DNA of 64,000 bases from Candidatus Latescibacterota bacterium. Its GTDB lineage: Bacteria; Krumholzibacteriota; Krumholzibacteriia; WVZY01. Position numbers and translations under genes: made by a program. Shown piece after piece: positions 1-58,348 of the stretch. Numbering within the stretch: position 1 is the stretch's first letter; each line of letters starts with the position of its first letter. The stretch spans positions 64,001 through 128,000 of the forward strand of contig CAWBQK010000004.1 in NCBI GenBank assembly GCA_963791045.1. Direction: 5' to 3'. Under the pieces are notes generated by a model. It had not been told where the DNA came from and did not search any database. It was given only the letters and a program-made list of their open reading frames with translations.

Positions 1-960
1 CGCGCCGTGCGACGCGCGTCCCTCGATCCCATACTTCCAACCCTTGGTCGTGCGGTACACGATTGCAGTCGGCTGACCGTTGTCGATCGTCCGCGCTTTT
101 CTCTGCGCGGCCACGATCTGTTGAAAATTCCGGCCATCCTCGACATAAATCACATTCCAGTCGTGGAGGTACGCGAACTCCATCGGCGTCCACTGAACGT
201 AATCGCCGGGTTCCTTGCCGTCGCGGCATACATGGTTGGAATCGATCGAAGCCTGGTTCCAGTCGATGTGCATGATCGCGTTGGCAAGAGACGCCGTCCC
301 AACCGCCGCCATGGCCTCACCGACACGCCCGGGTGTCATCCCGCCTTCGCCCTCGACGATGTGGACCCGCGGAGCTTTTGCGCCGTAGTAGTCGGCGGCG
401 CCATAGGCAAGACCCATCGAAGTCGCAACACCGACACCCGACGCTCCCGTCGACAGACGCACAAACGGCGTCGCCGGTGTGGGATGTCCATCGAGCGGTT
501 TGGAATTAAACTTCTTAAAGAGCGGTGTATTCGTGATCGGATTGCGCCGGAAACCAAGAAGGTCCTCGAGACGCAGCTGCATCTTCACATTTGAAGGAAG
601 CAGATCGGAAGCGCCCGCCCGCACAACTTCGTTCCTGAGCGCCCACATGGCATAAAGTCCCAGGGCCTTGTGTCCCGCCGCATATGAAATCTGATCCGCA
701 TCCCCACGATCAGGATCGGACACGTCATAATCCATCGCGTCGAACAAAATAGCTTCGACAAAACGCCCCGACGAAATCGATCCGCCCGGATGACCGGACA
801 TGGGAACATAATTGTACATCACGGCGCACAGCGATCTGTAAACGCTGTCAAATGTCTCGAATGAAGTGAGTTCTTCATCCGAGAGCGGGTTGCCGACTTT
901 TTTGAGCTCTTCGCTGATATCTATATAGACTGCTCTTCTCGGTCCAAACGCGAATGCCAT
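1..960 (-). CDS. Transketolase-like ThDP-dependent enzyme, N-terminal part (truncated by window edge)
   Basis: Absent from the ORF track because it has no stop inside the window. Manual translation from ATG at 960 (RBS AAGGAG upstream) gives MAFAFGPRR...SGHPGGSISS...YAAGHKALG...LDGHPTP...STGASGVG...VEGEGG...IDWNQ...TTKGW...SHGA, matching transketolase N-domain motifs (SGHPG, GH, GHP, TG.LG.G, GDG..N, TxKG, HG). Confidence 0.85.
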   Translation of the reverse strand, partial: MAFAFGPRRAVYIDISEELKKVGNPLSDEELTSFETFDSVYRSLCAVMYNYVPMSGHPGGSISSGRFVEAILFDAMDYDVSDPDRGDADQISYAAGHKALGLYAMWALRNEVVRAGASDLLPSNVKMQLRLEDLLGFRRNPITNTPLFKKFNSKPLDGHPTPATPFVRLSTGASGVGVATSMGLAYGAADYYGAKAPRVHIVEGEGGMTPGRVGEAMAAVGTASLANAIMHIDWNQASIDSNHVCRDGKEPGDYVQWTPMEFAYLHDWNVIYVEDGRNFQQIVAAQRKARTIDNGQPTAIVYRTTKGWKYGIEGRASHGA

Positions 961-993
961 CGTACGCTCCTTTCGCGAGCGGTTACCTCATAC

Positions 994-2292
994 TTAATAG
1001 AGATGCTCTCCAGCTTCAAAGAACCGCTTGAAGCCATCCTTGTCGAGGCTCGCCGCCTCGATCCTCCGCACACCCTCCTTGAGCGATTCCATATCGGTCG
1101 CCGTCGAGAGCCGCAAGAAATGCTTTCCCTCACTCCCTATCGCGCCGAACGACCGTCTGTCCATCGTGGCAACGCCATGCTCGTAGAGTGCAAACATCTG
1201 GAACATCGTCGACGGACTCGTCACCTTCTTTGTTTTGGCGTCCAGCGATTCGTACATCTCGATCATGCCGAGTTTTCTGCAAGCGCCGCCAATATTGGGG
1301 AATACGTAGAAAGCGCCTTCGGGCTTGTTGCACGAGACACCATCGATCGCGTTGAGCGCGTCGACAACCATATCCCGACGCTCCTGGAATTCGGTAGTCA
1401 TCGATGCGACAATGCCGCGGTTCTCATCACCATCGAGCGCCTGCTTACCGGCTTCCTGGATGAACGGTGGCGTGCACGAAATAATGTTGATGTTGAACTG
1501 CCGGAAGACCATCGCCTCTTCGACCGTGGGAAGCACGGCATAACCGAGCCGCCAGCCCGTCATCGCATACGACTTGGAGTGCCCGCTCACGAGAACGGTC
1601 TTCTCCGCCATACCCGGGAACGACACGATGCTCCGGTGTTTGTTTCCGTCAAAAATGATGTCCTCGTAGACTTCGTCCGAGTACACCCGGATGTCGGGGC
1701 TCGCCTTGTCGTTGATAACCCGCGCGATTTCCGTGAGGTCGGCTTCGGTGAGAACGCCTCCGGTCGGGTTCGAGGGCGAGTTGATTATCAGCACTTTTGT
1801 TTTTGGCGTGATCAAACGCTCAATATCGGACGCGTCAAAACGGAAGTTCTTCTCTTCCTCGAGATGGAGAGGCACCGGTTTCGCTCCGAGGAACGTCACC
1901 CACGATTCGTAGATTGGAAAGCCGGGGCTCGGATAGATGACTTCGTCGCCGGGATTGACAAAAGCCATCATCGTGTACGATATAGGCGGCTTCGCGCCGG
2001 TTGTAACGACGACTCTCTGTGGGTCGACGTCGATTCCCCGCGTCCGCTTAACCTGGGCCGCGATACTTTCCCGAAATTTGATGATCCCCTGCGGATCCGT
2101 GTAGTGTGAATTGCCGGCGTTGATATTCTTGATGCCGACATCATTGATATTCTGCGCGCTGTCAAAATCCGGCTCGCCGAGGTTGAGCTTGATGATCTTC
2201 ATCCCCTTCGCCTCGCACCGCTTGATATCATCACCGATTTTGAATGCGTTTTCCGTTCCGAGATTCAATACTCGATCAGCGAACACGCCCAT
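994..2292 (-). CDS. PLP-dependent aminotransferase, class I/II (aspartate aminotransferase family)
   Basis: Motifs LNLGEPDF, NSPSNPTG, SDEVY, SKSYAMTGWRLGY (PLP lysine), PEGAFYVF. Start placed at MGVFADRV. Confidence 0.93.
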   Translation of the reverse strand: MGVFADRVLNLGTENAFKIGDDIKRCEAKGMKIIKLNLGEPDFDSAQNINDVGIKNINAGNSHYTDPQGIIKFRESIAAQVKRTRGIDVDPQRVVVTTGAKPPISYTMMAFVNPGDEVIYPSPGFPIYESWVTFLGAKPVPLHLEEEKNFRFDASDIERLITPKTKVLIINSPSNPTGGVLTEADLTEIARVINDKASPDIRVYSDEVYEDIIFDGNKHRSIVSFPGMAEKTVLVSGHSKSYAMTGWRLGYAVLPTVEEAMVFRQFNINIISCTPPFIQEAGKQALDGDENRGIVASMTTEFQERRDMVVDALNAIDGVSCNKPEGAFYVFPNIGGACRKLGMIEMYESLDAKTKKVTSPSTMFQMFALYEHGVATMDRRSFGAIGSEGKHFLRLSTATDMESLKEGVRRIEAASLDKDGFKRFFEAGEHLY

Positions 2293-2335
2293 GGGAGCAC
2301 CCCCGCGAAAAAATACAAAATTAGGTCCCAACACT

Positions 2336-2370
2336 TAAAACAAAAGGGGCAGAATATACATTCCGCCCCT
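2336..2370 (-). terminator. Intrinsic terminator, riboswitch expression platform
   Basis: Minus strand AGGGGCGGAAT-GTAT-ATTCTGCCCCT followed by TTTGTTTT. Its 5' arm is the 3' P1 strand of aptamer 2. Confidence 0.8.
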
Positions 2371-2550
2371 GTCCTTGTTACCTGTGAGATTATCCTCTTT
2401 ACGAGGACTTACTCCTTCGGTGTCCAGGCTCACGGCCTGGCGCTTTCCAGGAGACTCCGAAACTCCAGTCCTTTTGCCTGAGAGTTTCGATCGGCCGCGG
2501 CCGTTCTTGCCCCTTCGGCGCCCGCTTTTCGCGAGTCTCTCCTGTGAGCC
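2365..2550 (-). ncRNA. Tandem glycine riboswitch (two aptamers)
   Basis: Aptamer 1: CAGGAGAG...CGCCGAAGGGGCAA...AAACTCTCAGGCAAAAGGACTG. Aptamer 2: CCTGGAAAG...CACCGAAGGAGTAA...AATCTCACAGGTAACAAGGACAGG. Both carry the GGARAG / CCGAAG / CTCTCAGG / GGAC consensus. Confidence 0.92.
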
Positions 2551-2567
2551 CGGTATGATTAAAAGCG

Positions 2568-2596
2568 ATTCTTGCATATTGGTTAACCAAAGGCAA
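2568..2596 (-). promoter_or_regulatory. Putative sigma70 promoter of the riboswitch leader
   Basis: TTGCCT-17 nt-AAGAAT with an extended -10 TG, ending just upstream of aptamer 1. Confidence 0.5.
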
Positions 2597-2844
2597 CAGA
2601 AAACGACGACTGGTCAGGGGCCCGAAATCCTGCCGCTTTTTGACATCTAACGGCCTCGAAATTGACAAATATCAAATGAAAAAGTGACCTGTTGTCCATT
2701 GCTGCCCGGCGGGTCAACACCGCCCCATTCACGCCACCACCAAAATCGCTACCCGAACAAGAACGAAGATTCTTTTAGCCGGCAATCTTCAACTAAATTT
2801 GCCGCGCGGGTTGTATTATCAGCGTTCTGTGCTATGTTTAGACC

Positions 2845-2960
2845 ACAGGATTTTCGCGAAACAAGTTTCAACCTGCCGGACGTTCTCGACTGGGTTCGGG
2901 GCCACTCTTTTGTGTCCGCGAATGATTGAGAAAGACGCACGTTCGGCAGGTTGTTTTTTT
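2845..2960 (+). ncRNA. Candidate small RNA (long rod hairpin plus U7), or a bidirectional terminator
   Basis: 15-bp stem (2869-2883 with 2939-2953) with inner stems, then TTTTTTT. Possible promoter TTGTAT-16-TATGTT at 2811-2838. Confidence 0.35.
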
Positions 2961-2978
2961 CAAGCGCCACCTTCCCCC

Positions 2979-3419
2979 TCAAGCGAAAACCTTTCTCACA
3001 ACAATCAACCCGATAATGAGCAACAACTCCACACCCGCAAGGAGGATTCCGCCTTTTTTAACGCGCTTTCCGAGATCCAACTTGTCCCGCCCCAGCTTAC
3101 GAATGGCTTTTTTAAGCCGAGCATTCTCCTGATCGAGCCTCGCTTCGGTTTTTGCAAATATCATCGAACTCTTTATCGCTTTTCCCGAGCGGGACGCCTT
3201 GAGGGAATCGGGGATTTCACTGATCGCTTGCCCTTCCTTCGCAATGTCCTCACGCAGCTTTGCCTTCTCGTCGAACACGCGCGATTGCTTTTGCTGATTC
3301 TCGACTATGGACGTTCCGACTTTTCGAAGCTCGACAACATCTTTGGAGATCACCACGCCGCCGATGATACCGCCAATGACGATCAGGACACCCAACGTGA
3401 CGCTCAATACACGTTTCAT
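2979..3419 (-). CDS. Hypothetical membrane protein (two TM helices flanking a coiled coil)
   Basis: Hydrophobic N- and C-terminal helices with a charged helical middle; RBS GGAG before the ATG. Confidence 0.75.
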   Translation of the reverse strand: MKRVLSVTLGVLIVIGGIIGGVVISKDVVELRKVGTSIVENQQKQSRVFDEKAKLREDIAKEGQAISEIPDSLKASRSGKAIKSSMIFAKTEARLDQENARLKKAIRKLGRDKLDLGKRVKKGGILLAGVELLLIIGLIVVRKVFA

Positions 3420-3440
3420 CTATTCACTCCGTATTTGATT

Positions 3441-5114
3441 TCATTGTGATCCATCGAAAACCACTTCGCCGCCGACCACAGTGTGGGTCACAGCGAGGTC
3501 GTGGAGATCGCTTTTCGGCACTTTGAACGGGTCAGAGGCCATAACCGTAAGGTCCGCTAACATACCCACTTGCACGCACCCCTTAATGCTTTCCATAAAT
3601 CCGGCGTACGCCGCCTCCCGTGTAAATCCGCTCACGGCCTCCTCCACAGTCATGCACTCTTGCGAATACCATCCCGATTCCGGCCAGCCCTCGGCGTCCT
3701 GCCGTGTGGCGGCCGCGTAGATACCCCACAATGGGTTCGCGCCTTCTACCGGGAAGTCCGATCCGCAGCAGATCACCGCACCGGTGTTCAATAATTTTCG
3801 CCACGCGTAAGCGCCCACAAGCCGCTCGCTCCCCAATCTGTCGACGGCCCAGTACATGTCGGATGTCGCGTGCGTCGGCTGCATCGACGCGATCACGCTG
3901 AGCTCTTTGAAACGGCCGATGTCTCCCGGCGCCAAAATTTGAGCGTGTTCGATCCTGAGCCGATAGTCCCCTTCTCCCGCTTCGTCCATTGCCTCTTTGT
4001 ACACATCGAGCATCAAACGGTTCGCGCCATCTCCGATCGCGTGCGTACAAACTTGAAACCCATTCTCGATCGCCAGCGTCGTCCAGCGTAGAAGCTCATC
4101 ACGTGTGTGCATCAAAAGCCCCGCGTTTCCCGGCTCATCCGAGTACGGCGCGAGGAGAGCCGCACCACGCGATCCCAACGCACCGTCCGCGTAGATCTTC
4201 AACGCCCGAATGGTGAGGTAGTGGTCGGGATCGAGCTCAGGCCCGTTCCGCATGAATTCTTCGGCAAAGGATTCCTCATCGGATTCGAGCATCCCGTATA
4301 CACGAAAGTTGAGTTCACCGTGTTCGACCAGATAGCGGAGCGCTTCGAGATCCTTCGCCCCGATACCCGCGTCATGGATACCCGTCAGTCCATAGCGGTG
4401 GCATTCGTCGATCGCCGTACGGTAGCGCTCGACCCGCTCCTCGAACGACGGCTCGGGTTTGACACTCGTCACGAGATTCTTTGCGTTGTCGATTAAAACA
4501 CCGGTCGGATTACCCGACTCATCCCTGATAATTCTCCCGCCATCGGGATCCTTCGTGTCTTTCGTGATTCCACACAACTCCATTGCGCGCTTATTGAGCC
4601 ACCCGGCATGACCGTCGACCCGCCGCAAATATACCGGGTTTGCATCGGTGCCGTCGAGATCGGCGAACGTGGGAAATTCCTTCACCGGCCAGTCGTTCTG
4701 GTCCCAACCGCGTCCCTCTATCCAGTCTCCCGGCGGCATCGTTTTCTGCCTGGCAAGAACCCGTTCGCGCGCGGCCACAGCCGAATCCGTACCTACGAGA
4801 TCCACCTGCCGTAGCGCCTTCCCCAGTCCGCTCAAATGGGCGTGGGCATCAACAAGCCCCGGCAGCACCGTCTTGCCCGTGACATCGAGCACGCGTGTAC
4901 CCGATCCCTTGAAGCGTTCCGCCTCCTCCCTGCTCCCCGTGAACACGATGTACTGGCCCCTGATGGCCACGGCTTCAACCCGCGGCTGTTCGGGGTTGAG
5001 AGTGTGGATGGTGTCGCCCACGACAATCAAATCGGCCTGTTGGGTCGAGCACGACATCATCGGAATGGCAAAAACAGCCAACAACACGACCAACAACACA
5101 TGGAAGTTCTTCAC
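3441..5114 (-). CDS. Amidohydrolase family 3 (YtcJ-like) lipoprotein
   Basis: PGLVDAHAH, KIYADGALGSRGA, HAIGD, RIEHAQ, GSDFP; lipobox-like MMSC. Confidence 0.92.
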   Translation of the reverse strand: MKNFHVLLVVLLAVFAIPMMSCSTQQADLIVVGDTIHTLNPEQPRVEAVAIRGQYIVFTGSREEAERFKGSGTRVLDVTGKTVLPGLVDAHAHLSGLGKALRQVDLVGTDSAVAARERVLARQKTMPPGDWIEGRGWDQNDWPVKEFPTFADLDGTDANPVYLRRVDGHAGWLNKRAMELCGITKDTKDPDGGRIIRDESGNPTGVLIDNAKNLVTSVKPEPSFEERVERYRTAIDECHRYGLTGIHDAGIGAKDLEALRYLVEHGELNFRVYGMLESDEESFAEEFMRNGPELDPDHYLTIRALKIYADGALGSRGAALLAPYSDEPGNAGLLMHTRDELLRWTTLAIENGFQVCTHAIGDGANRLMLDVYKEAMDEAGEGDYRLRIEHAQILAPGDIGRFKELSVIASMQPTHATSDMYWAVDRLGSERLVGAYAWRKLLNTGAVICCGSDFPVEGANPLWGIYAAATRQDAEGWPESGWYSQECMTVEEAVSGFTREAAYAGFMESIKGCVQVGMLADLTVMASDPFKVPKSDLHDLAVTHTVVGGEVVFDGSQ

Positions 5115-56537: not shown

Positions 56538-56614
56538 TGGAGGCGGCACCCGGATTCGAACCGGGGAATAACGGTTTTGCAGACCGTCGCCTTAAACCAC
56601 TTGGCTATGCCGCC
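56538..56614 (-). tRNA. tRNA-Cys (GCA)
   Basis: GGCGGCATAGCCAAGTGGTTTAAGGCGACGGTCTGCAAAACCGTTATTCCCCGGTTCGAATCCGGGTGCCGCCTCCA: cloverleaf, anticodon GCA, encoded CCA. Confidence 0.97.
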
Positions 56615-58273: not shown

Positions 58274-58348
58274 TGGAGCGGGAAACGGGATTCGAACCCG
58301 CGACATCGACCTTGGCAAGGTCGCGCTCTACCACTGAGCTATTCCCGC
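58274..58348 (-). tRNA. tRNA-Gly (GCC)
   Basis: GCGGGAATAGCTCAGTGGTAGAGCGCGACCTTGCCAAGGTCGATGTCGCGGGTTCGAATCCCGTTTCCCGCTCCA: anticodon GCC, encoded CCA. Confidence 0.97.

Follow-up and report, generated by a model that had tools for sequence, protein, structure and literature searches.

A tandem glycine riboswitch precedes an aminotransferase gene and a divergent, long transketolase-like gene in a Latescibacterota genome

This analysis concerns a two-gene operon headed by a tandem glycine riboswitch, located at one end of a 64,000-nucleotide (nt) stretch of DNA from a Candidatus Latescibacterota bacterium (assembly GCA_963791045.1, here G000). The whole stretch, referred to as the window, is G000:C4:64001-128000, part of a genome of 3.66 Mb in 21 contigs. 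The operon encodes a class I aminotransferase (AT) and a long transketolase (TK)-like protein. All of its elements lie on the minus strand of the window and are, in 5′ to 3′ order:

2568..2596, minus strand: weak candidate promoter, TTGCCT (2596-2591), 17-nt spacer, AAGAAT (2573-2568); read by eye, 8/12.
2457..2554, minus strand: glycine riboswitch aptamer 1; RF00504, 63.7 bits, E 7.1e-11, full model (1-94).
2359..2460, minus strand: glycine riboswitch aptamer 2, more divergent, with cores GGAAAG, CACCGAAGGAGUAA and CUCACAGGUAACAAGGAC; RF00504, 38.8 bits, E 5.3e-7, full model.
2336..2370, minus strand: intrinsic terminator (expression platform); stem 2370-2345, 11 pairs (6 G-C), 4-nt loop, tail TTTGTTTT.
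994..2292, minus strand: class I (aspartate aminotransferase (AspAT)-like) AT, 432 amino acids (aa) from ATG 2292; PF00155.
961..993, minus strand: intergenic spacer of exactly 33 nt, with a ribosome-binding site (RBS), AAAGGAG, 7 nt before the ATG.
1..960, minus strand: long TK, first 320 of 786 codons; the remainder lies upstream of the window (G000:C4:62600-64000 = L002:15600-17000).

A tandem glycine riboswitch upstream of the AT gene had been proposed in an earlier note on this DNA, and the Rfam Glycine model returned two matches there, both above the gathering score of 32 bits. The second aptamer was detected only in a scan of 136 nt with lax filters, having been missed at the gathering threshold and at E≤10 on 800 nt. 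A whole-genome Rfam scan of G000 revealed the same two aptamers and no other glycine riboswitch among the candidates that were scored (150 of 419). The aptamers abut head to tail and are followed by the terminator and then by the AT start codon, as a 5′ leader on the same strand.

The terminator, which the note had also described, was confirmed as an 11-bp stem followed by TTTGTTTT. Its 5′ arm, AGGGGCGGAAU, holds the sequence AGGGG, which is common to the 3′ strand of the P1 stem of aptamer 2, where it pairs with CUCCU. In the ligand-free minimum free energy fold the terminator and the P2 and P3 stems of aptamer 2 are formed and P1 is not (z = -3.5). In an alignment of the leaders of five genomes the aptamer cores do not vary and the terminator is conserved, whereas the stems and loops of P2 and P3b differ in sequence. 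The terminator overlaps P1 of aptamer 2, and the leader is therefore predicted, from sequence and fold, to be a classic ON-type tandem glycine riboswitch. Without glycine the terminator would form, and upon glycine binding P1 of aptamer 2 would sequester AGGGG from the terminator 5′ arm, so that transcription reads through. As regards expression data, there was no RNA dataset among the matches listed, and no sequencing run contained more than 0.12 of the sampled words.

The promoter that had been placed upstream of the riboswitch was not confirmed: a consensus scan with a threshold of 9/12 found no sigma-70-like site upstream of aptamer 1. The TTGCCT-17-AAGAAT element read by eye was not listed by the scan because its score (8/12) is below this threshold. 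It is correctly positioned, approximately 10 nt before aptamer 1, and only its -10-like part (A.AAT) is partly conserved, in four of five aligned relatives. We regard it as one weak element, unconfirmed beyond chance.

The reading frame of the AT is open from GTG 2334, directly after the terminator tail, to position 994. The real start codon is probably ATG 2292, which has GGGGGTG upstream; the resulting length of 432 aa equals that found by open reading frame (ORF) scan for three homologues (L106, L110 and L113), and alignments of homologues to the AT begin at residues 8-18. The assignment to class I/II, made in the note, agrees with a match to PF00155 (Aminotran_1_2; 204 bits, E 3.7e-60) that covers profile positions 2-361 of 361, and a TK-like gene does follow after 33 nt, as the note had stated. 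The translation contains SGHSKSYAMTGWRLGY, which was matched by eye to S-x-S-K...G-x-R, the pyridoxal phosphate-lysine motif. The best NCBIfam model for this protein is PRK06107 (281.8 bits versus a cut-off of 617).

The operon continues past the window edge, as expected, by the remaining 1.4 kb of the TK gene, and then ends. A GC-rich hairpin without a T run lies directly after this gene, and a strong promoter-like site (11/12) precedes the next, unrelated gene. The note had considered that gcvTHP or a glycine transporter further down the operon might explain the riboswitch; neither a gcv gene nor a transporter was found in the operon, which comprises two genes only, and 17 kb upstream of the window was examined for its end. 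The genes that follow encode secreted proteins with FG-GAP, Big_5 and type IX secretion system (T9SS) domains. At L002:5203-14639 (minus strand), just upstream of the window, the first of them is 2241 aa long and combines nine FG-GAP repeats with Big_5, beta-propellers and a matrixin-like M10 domain. The second, of 906 aa, carries a Por/T9SS C-terminal sorting domain, and TPR and CHAT-domain proteins are encoded further along.

The glycine cleavage genes of G000 form a gcvT-gcvH-gcvPA-gcvPB operon on another contig, and no Rfam match at E≤1 was obtained in the 2.5 kb spanning the gcvT start and the region upstream of it. In all four relatives that carry the riboswitch, as in G000, gcvT and gcvP are likewise located elsewhere in the genome.

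To define how widely these elements occur, we used a phylum sample of 151 genomes, in which glycine riboswitches are rare (seven genomes, six of them over the cut-off). Five of the seven belong to the family of the window (G000, G084, G117, G125 and G131), out of ten family genomes sampled. The order riboswitch-AT-TK, whose conservation the note had left to be checked, is intact in G084, G117 and G125, where the riboswitch is tandem, and in locus L110 (66.2 bits) and the metagenome contig L161. Across the intact loci the AT is 73-84% and the TK 69-77% identical to its G000 counterpart, and the AT-TK spacer measures 115 nt in G084 and 19-42 nt in G117 and G125. Two further contigs are truncated: L162 carries the riboswitch and the AT and ends 82 residues into the TK, and L163 carries the riboswitch and ends inside the AT.

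The arrangement is split in G131 (=G001), a metagenome-assembled genome (MAG) in a single contig. Here the tandem riboswitch and AT residues 5-117 are found at C1:896204-896405, and AT residues 163-446 and the long TK at C1:2.572 Mb, approximately 1.68 Mb away (also L055:11820-12405 and L124). The operon has been broken inside the AT by either rearrangement or misassembly.

A different situation was found in G097, which belongs to the same class and another family. In this genome the tandem glycine riboswitch stands ahead of gcvT-gcvP-sdaB-sdaA, an operon that makes up a route from glycine through serine to pyruvate; the long TK is located away from the riboswitch. The gcvT gene of G097 appears as two ORFs (GCV_T profile positions 1-158 and 203-255; L070:402-1357, G097:C11) and its sdaA-type alpha chain is likewise interrupted, in both cases by frameshifts or sequencing errors.

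The 786-aa product of the second gene matches the TK domains PF00456 (58.6 bits), PF02779 (40.2 bits) and PF22613 (22.3 bits, below its cut-off of 27). It reaches none of the curated TK models, whose cut-offs range from 488 to 788 bits (NF004559, 133 versus 488; TIGR00232, 98.5 versus 682; NF004556, 82 versus 575). Because it falls short of these equivalog thresholds, we place the protein in a new clade of the TK family, apart from TktA. Its best PDB sequence match is human TK (E 5e-19), and a profile of 30 family sequences matches 41 PDB sequences, all of them transketolases. In the AlphaFold2 model (pLDDT 85.7, pTM 0.89) the TK fold is recovered: every PDB match listed by Foldseek in the top 49 ranks is a transketolase, with target-normalised TM scores of 0.76-0.80 at 18-22% identity.

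Twelve residues (H57, H97, H159, E205, N235, H318, R442, E503, H566, D574, H578 and R628) are invariant in the 30 family members and align with the catalytic and phosphate-binding motifs of the canonical TK of G000. In E. coli numbering, the set of catalytic His, cofactor Glu and substrate-phosphate (Arg/His/Arg) residues comprises H26, H66, H100, H261, R358, E411, H461, D469, H473 and R520. The conserved motif residues include the His of SGHPG, GH, GHP and HG, the Asn of the metal motif, the H...D...H of HAGxKTGEDGPTH and the Arg of TRP; the phosphate-binding Arg and the cofactor Glu are also invariant. The thiamine diphosphate (ThDP)/metal motif reads G-E-G...(I-D-W-)N versus G-D-G...N, with E205 at the position of the GDG Asp (a conservative Asp-to-Glu change) and N235, and Ala replaces Ser at the GGSADL position (S385). 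The protein is approximately 120 residues longer than canonical TK, with an extended N terminus and an inserted helical linker of about 100 residues at approximately 330-440.

Three other identities were considered and rejected. Pyruvate dehydrogenase E1 and DXS scored only 15.9 bits (aceE model) and 19 bits (DXS model), all 41 PDB profile matches being TKs, and there was no XFP Pfam match that would indicate a phosphoketolase. The operon gene probably encodes a working, ThDP-dependent transketolase from a divergent clade of long proteins.

This clade includes at least 4473 proteins at E≤1e-10 among 8000 candidates; its best 120 members (68-88% identity, 747-811 aa) are labelled 'transketolase' or 'hypothetical protein'. 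Besides the operon gene, G000 encodes a canonical TK (PF00456, 475 bits) and an 814-aa paralogue of the long TK (28% identity over the full length). This paralogue (G000:C13:204215-206503; L041:1039-3483) has the same architecture, including the linker insertion, and lies directly after a polyprenyl synthetase gene (L041:45-1067). Both long clades, orthologue and paralogue, are probably real transketolases. Two Planctomycetota loci, L009 and L017, contain a second TK-like gene no more than approximately 6 kb from the first, and in a Bacteroidetes-labelled MAG (L010:7001-9379) the long TK contains one in-frame stop codon that leaves ORFs of 669 and 131 aa.

An orthologue of the long TK (at least 56% identity) is present in 62 of the 151 genomes, with paralogue-level matches only in 19 more, and canonical TK (E≤1e-80) in 40. 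At this threshold canonical TK is absent from 48 of the 62 orthologue carriers. The pattern is most marked in three families: long-TK matches were found in 33/33 genomes of f5, 9/10 of f3 and 5/6 of f8, and canonical TK in 3/33, 0/10 and 0/6, respectively. PF00456 scans of ten genomes (G084, G125, G034, G097, G041, G013, G018, G022, G019 and G031) revealed no canonical or split TK; the weak matches that they gave were long TK-likes, AceE-sized frames (about 900 aa or more) and DXS-sized frames (about 650 aa). Nor was a canonical TK seen in two complete Zixibacteria chromosomes. Among five checked genomes without canonical TK, ribulose-phosphate 3-epimerase (Rpe) was present in all and phosphoketolase in none. 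With Rpe present, and neither phosphoketolase nor canonical TK found, TK activity is to be expected, for which there is no candidate other than the long form. These results suggest that the divergent long TK substitutes for TktA in many uncultured lineages.

Adjacency of the two genes extends beyond the family of the window. A class I AT adjoins the long TK in 12 of 37 long-TK genome loci, in three arrangements (on the same strand, either upstream or downstream, or divergent) and with 34-82% identity to the G000 AT. Conversely, among the 27 loci of AT orthologues (at least 50% identity), the long TK lies directly downstream in 13 and there is no TK downstream in 14, including L123, whose contig ends inside the AT. 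The AT-orthologue loci are labelled Latescibacterota, Krumholzibacteriia, Gemmatimonadota, Chitinivibrionia, Melainabacteria, Myxococcales and Thermoanaerobaculia. In the phylum sample, adjacency of the AT is limited to the family of the window (6 of the 30 best loci).

No conserved neighbour of the long TK other than the AT was observed in these 37 and 30 loci, where genes were called crudely as the longest ORFs, a procedure that fails in high-GC DNA. The neighbours of the AT loci without TK are heterogeneous (glycosyltransferase, sulfite reductase, DAO-family oxidoreductase, thiolase and acyl-CoA ligase). No AT-TK fusion was found among proteins of 1377-3930 aa, a weak result, as a fusion of about 1220 aa falls in the length class represented by the best 120 matches.

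The long TK also occurs in a conserved cluster in Zixibacteria and Ignavibacteria (L018:5425-15712, L019, L031 and L033), whose gene order is tryptophanase-family lyase, long TK, AspAT-like AT, alanine racemase, two NlpC/P60 proteins, C39-like peptidase and LD-carboxypeptidase; in three of the four loci an L-Ala-D/L-Glu-epimerase-like gene comes next. The AT in question is a different, shorter AspAT-like gene. The cluster, with a TK in its middle, resembles one for the salvage of murein peptides.

Elsewhere in the window, a 216-aa ORF without Pfam or NCBIfam match (2799-3449, plus strand) diverges from the riboswitch leader. It adjoins the gene of a 557-aa Amidohydro_3 protein (3441-5114, minus strand; 364 bits), which is below every equivalog cut-off. 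Two tRNA genes are located at 56541-56614 and 58277-58348 (minus strand; 68.9 and 73.2 bits).

What lies at the locus is glycine-ON transcriptional control, as predicted, of the AT and the long TK. From this we infer that an amino acid whose level follows that of glycine is converted by the AT to a 2-oxo acid, which the TK consumes. The reading to which we lean, tentatively, is that the two enzymes form a glycine/serine overflow and assimilation route into pentose phosphates. Glycine and serine are interconverted by serine hydroxymethyltransferase and the unregulated glycine cleavage system, and when they are in excess the AT would deaminate serine to hydroxypyruvate. The long TK would then transfer a ketol group irreversibly, with release of CO2, from hydroxypyruvate to an aldose phosphate, e.g. 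glyceraldehyde-3-phosphate. Amino-acid carbon would in this way enter the pentose-phosphate pool, and the route would complement glycine cleavage. The earlier note had proposed the passage of glycine/serine carbon through a ThDP enzyme into sugar phosphates; the long TK keeps the TK residues checked and appears to act as a real transketolase, which fits the hydroxypyruvate chemistry invoked there, and the pathway as a whole stands as a plausible proposal.

Several observations led us to favour serine and hydroxypyruvate. Hydroxypyruvate is a general, irreversible TK donor, and the active site of the long TK is an ordinary one. Moreover, the riboswitch occupies the place that is held before the gcv-sda operon in G097. 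Finally, other sinks are mostly missing from the five riboswitch carriers (G000, G084, G117, G125 and G131), in which malate synthase, glyoxylate carboligase over the cut-off and class I glycerate kinase were each found in 0/5 and MOFRL-type glycerate kinase in 2/5. Family-wide, the two glycerate kinases were found in 0/13 and 3/13 genomes, respectively. These absences constitute weak evidence, since the genomes are 80-95% complete. The absence of an iron-sulfur serine dehydratase was rejected as support, this enzyme being found in only 6 of the 151 genomes.

The conversion of serine to hydroxypyruvate by a transaminase and its use as a TK donor are established in engineered cascades, according to the available parts of PMC6140825 and PMC5813273. 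The note's author knew of no described natural pathway of this kind, and our literature search likewise returned no natural AT-TK route.

A number of findings, however, weigh against a dedicated serine route. The AT reached no equivalog cut-off among the best 25 of 74 matched families, and its nearest PDB relatives are archaeal and bacterial aspartate, aromatic and prephenate aminotransferases. The riboswitch is confined to one family-level lineage, and most AT-TK pairs lack it (L108, L109, L122, L125, L126, L130, L131, L005, L030, L037 and L039); the long TK itself is usually solitary, without an adjacent AT in 24 of the 30 best phylum loci. The Zixibacteria/Ignavibacteria neighbourhood points to alanine and pyruvate, not serine. 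G000 itself has one serine dehydratase match (PF03313), missed by tblastn with G097 fragments, and this genome is 81% complete with 5.8% contamination.

The role of the long TK also bears on the question. In many lineages it has the appearance of the housekeeping TK, and no special pathway is then needed to account for its membership in the operon. G084 and G125 have no TK-family candidates other than the operon gene and its paralogue, and tight glycine-dependence of a housekeeping enzyme would therefore be odd. Nor is there an overall anticorrelation between the two TK forms (canonical TK in 14 of 62 carriers versus 26 of 89 non-carriers); this is explained by family f6, which is mostly without canonical TK (present in 5/60) and of which the five genomes scanned carry only the paralogue-type long TK-like.

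Since the long TK seems to be a housekeeping enzyme in related lineages, the locus can also be read without invoking a new pathway: the operon would be part of an amino-acid-growth regulon, with a broad Asp/Ala/Glu AT, an ordinary pentose-phosphate TK and glycine as a proxy for peptide availability. Transamination would be raised together with a TK that makes ribose-5-phosphate and erythrose-4-phosphate gluconeogenically, and no metabolite would be handed over. We consider this doubtful taken by itself, and nearly as likely as the serine/hydroxypyruvate route. It accords with the long TK being the only TK candidate in many Rpe-bearing relatives, with the conservation of all TK residues checked, with the relatives of the AT named above and with the variable contexts of a mostly solitary TK; the secreted protease-like and T9SS neighbours suggest a polymer or peptide degrader. 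On the other hand, adjacency of AT and TK across phyla in three arrangements would not be expected of unrelated housekeeping genes, and G000 already has a canonical TK and the paralogue. The glycine riboswitches described in the available parts of PMC2211319 and PMC6944388 control, moreover, functions specific to glycine, namely gcv, transporters, malate synthase and serC.

A third possibility, which we hold to be unlikely, is that the AT turns glycine into glyoxylate and the ThDP enzyme removes this toxic product. Glyoxylate may accept the ketol group of xylulose-5-phosphate or fructose-6-phosphate to give 3-oxo-tetronate, which may decarboxylate to dihydroxyacetone; alternatively, glyoxylate may itself be decarboxylated and the C1 unit added to an aldose phosphate. 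The sensed ligand is glycine, whose direct transamination product is glyoxylate, and the lack of malate synthase and glyoxylate carboligase in the surveyed carriers also fits. Both reactions are hypothetical for TK-family enzymes, however. The active site is like that of an ordinary TK and retains both His residues that contact the donor hydroxymethyl group in the canonical enzyme, and no family-specific change toward a carboxylate acceptor was identified. A precedent for glycine control of glyoxylate removal is the riboswitch on malate synthase in SAR11-type fragments described in the available part of PMC2211319.

Least probable, and in our judgement quite improbable, is that the AT alone is glycine-responsive (nitrogen harvest or detoxification), with the TK as a passenger with an internal promoter, or that the pair makes a specialised product outside central carbon: the AT loci without a downstream TK (14/27, counting the contig that ends inside the AT), their varied other neighbours and the G084 spacer of 115 nt, which has room for a promoter, would allow this, but the 33-nt spacer of G000 holds only the RBS, those of G117 and G125 are similarly short, and the TK is directly downstream in all intact riboswitch loci that extend far enough.

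Returning to the serine/hydroxypyruvate route, we put forward a wider proposal, which we regard as somewhat unlikely in its entirety. The AT and the long TK would form a conserved module of at least six phylum-level lineages that directs serine/glycine, via hydroxypyruvate or glyoxylate, to pentose/tetrose phosphates and CO2; the glycine riboswitch, which controls glycine cleavage elsewhere, would have been captured by this module in one Latescibacterota/Krumholzibacteriia lineage; and the long TK of approximately 785 aa would be the unrecognised transketolase of many candidate phyla that seemingly lack TktA.

Through its ligand, glycine, the riboswitch hints at what two uncharacterised and very widespread protein clades do. 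If the route exists, it would represent a new way of amino-acid assimilation, from serine/glycine carbon to sugar phosphates, and would supply natural enzymes for C-C bond formation driven by hydroxypyruvate. The apparent substitution of TktA bears on reconstructions that score the non-oxidative pentose-phosphate pathway as incomplete in the genomes concerned.

As an RNA, the leader is a standard member of RF00504, and the AT-TK regulon was not found described. The riboswitch of the B. subtilis-type gcvT-gcvPA-gcvPB operon (RF00504) has, as here, tandem aptamers with one expression platform, a terminator that competes with P1 of aptamer 2, and ON logic. That riboswitch controls glycine cleavage genes, whereas the one in G000 controls an AspAT-like AT and a long TK. 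The classic riboswitch-gcvT-gcvP arrangement is kept in G097, extended by serine dehydratase genes; the gcv operon of G000, in contrast, has no riboswitch.

In the available parts of PMC2211319, PMC6944388 and PMC13759103 the targets of glycine riboswitches are gcv, transporters, malate synthase, serC and GlyXS/GlyXL. Of these sources, PMC6944388 discusses the gcv and transporter contexts, and the GapMind 2026 study (PMC13759103), in the part available, concerns GlyXL/GlyXS, unrelated to the AT-TK operon. No glycine riboswitch on a class I AT plus transketolase is described in the literature found, in which the supplementary context table of PMC6944388 could list rarer contexts. A close parallel comes from marine metagenomes, in which a glycine riboswitch precedes serC or the malate synthase gene glcB (PMC2211319, available part); this likewise involves a non-gcv enzyme of glycine/serine/glyoxylate metabolism, including an aminotransferase. 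The marine serC is, however, a class V aminotransferase and the G000 AT a class I enzyme, and that paper reports no ThDP enzyme, the word 'transketolase' occurring 0 times in its available text. The engineered cascades from serine via hydroxypyruvate to ketoses (PMC6140825 and PMC5813273, available parts) use the same enzyme classes in the order implied by the operon, but are man-made one-pot systems.

The long TK shares with canonical TktA (TIGR00232; PDB 1qgd, 2r5n and 8cip) the three-domain TK fold, the catalytic His residues, the cofactor Glu and the phosphate-site Arg/His, and has a candidate ThDP/metal motif. It differs from TktA in its additional length of about 120 residues, in GEG for GDG and in the Ala at the GGSADL Ser, and is 18-22% identical to the solved TKs.

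Finally, the proposed route may be compared with the serine cycle, in which serine-glyoxylate aminotransferase is followed by hydroxypyruvate reductase and glycerate kinase. Common to both is the deamination of serine to hydroxypyruvate as a way into central carbon, which for the AT-TK operon is a proposal. The serine cycle, however, relies on a class V aminotransferase and on the reduction of hydroxypyruvate to glycerate, whereas the AT-TK operon pairs a class I AT with a transketolase.

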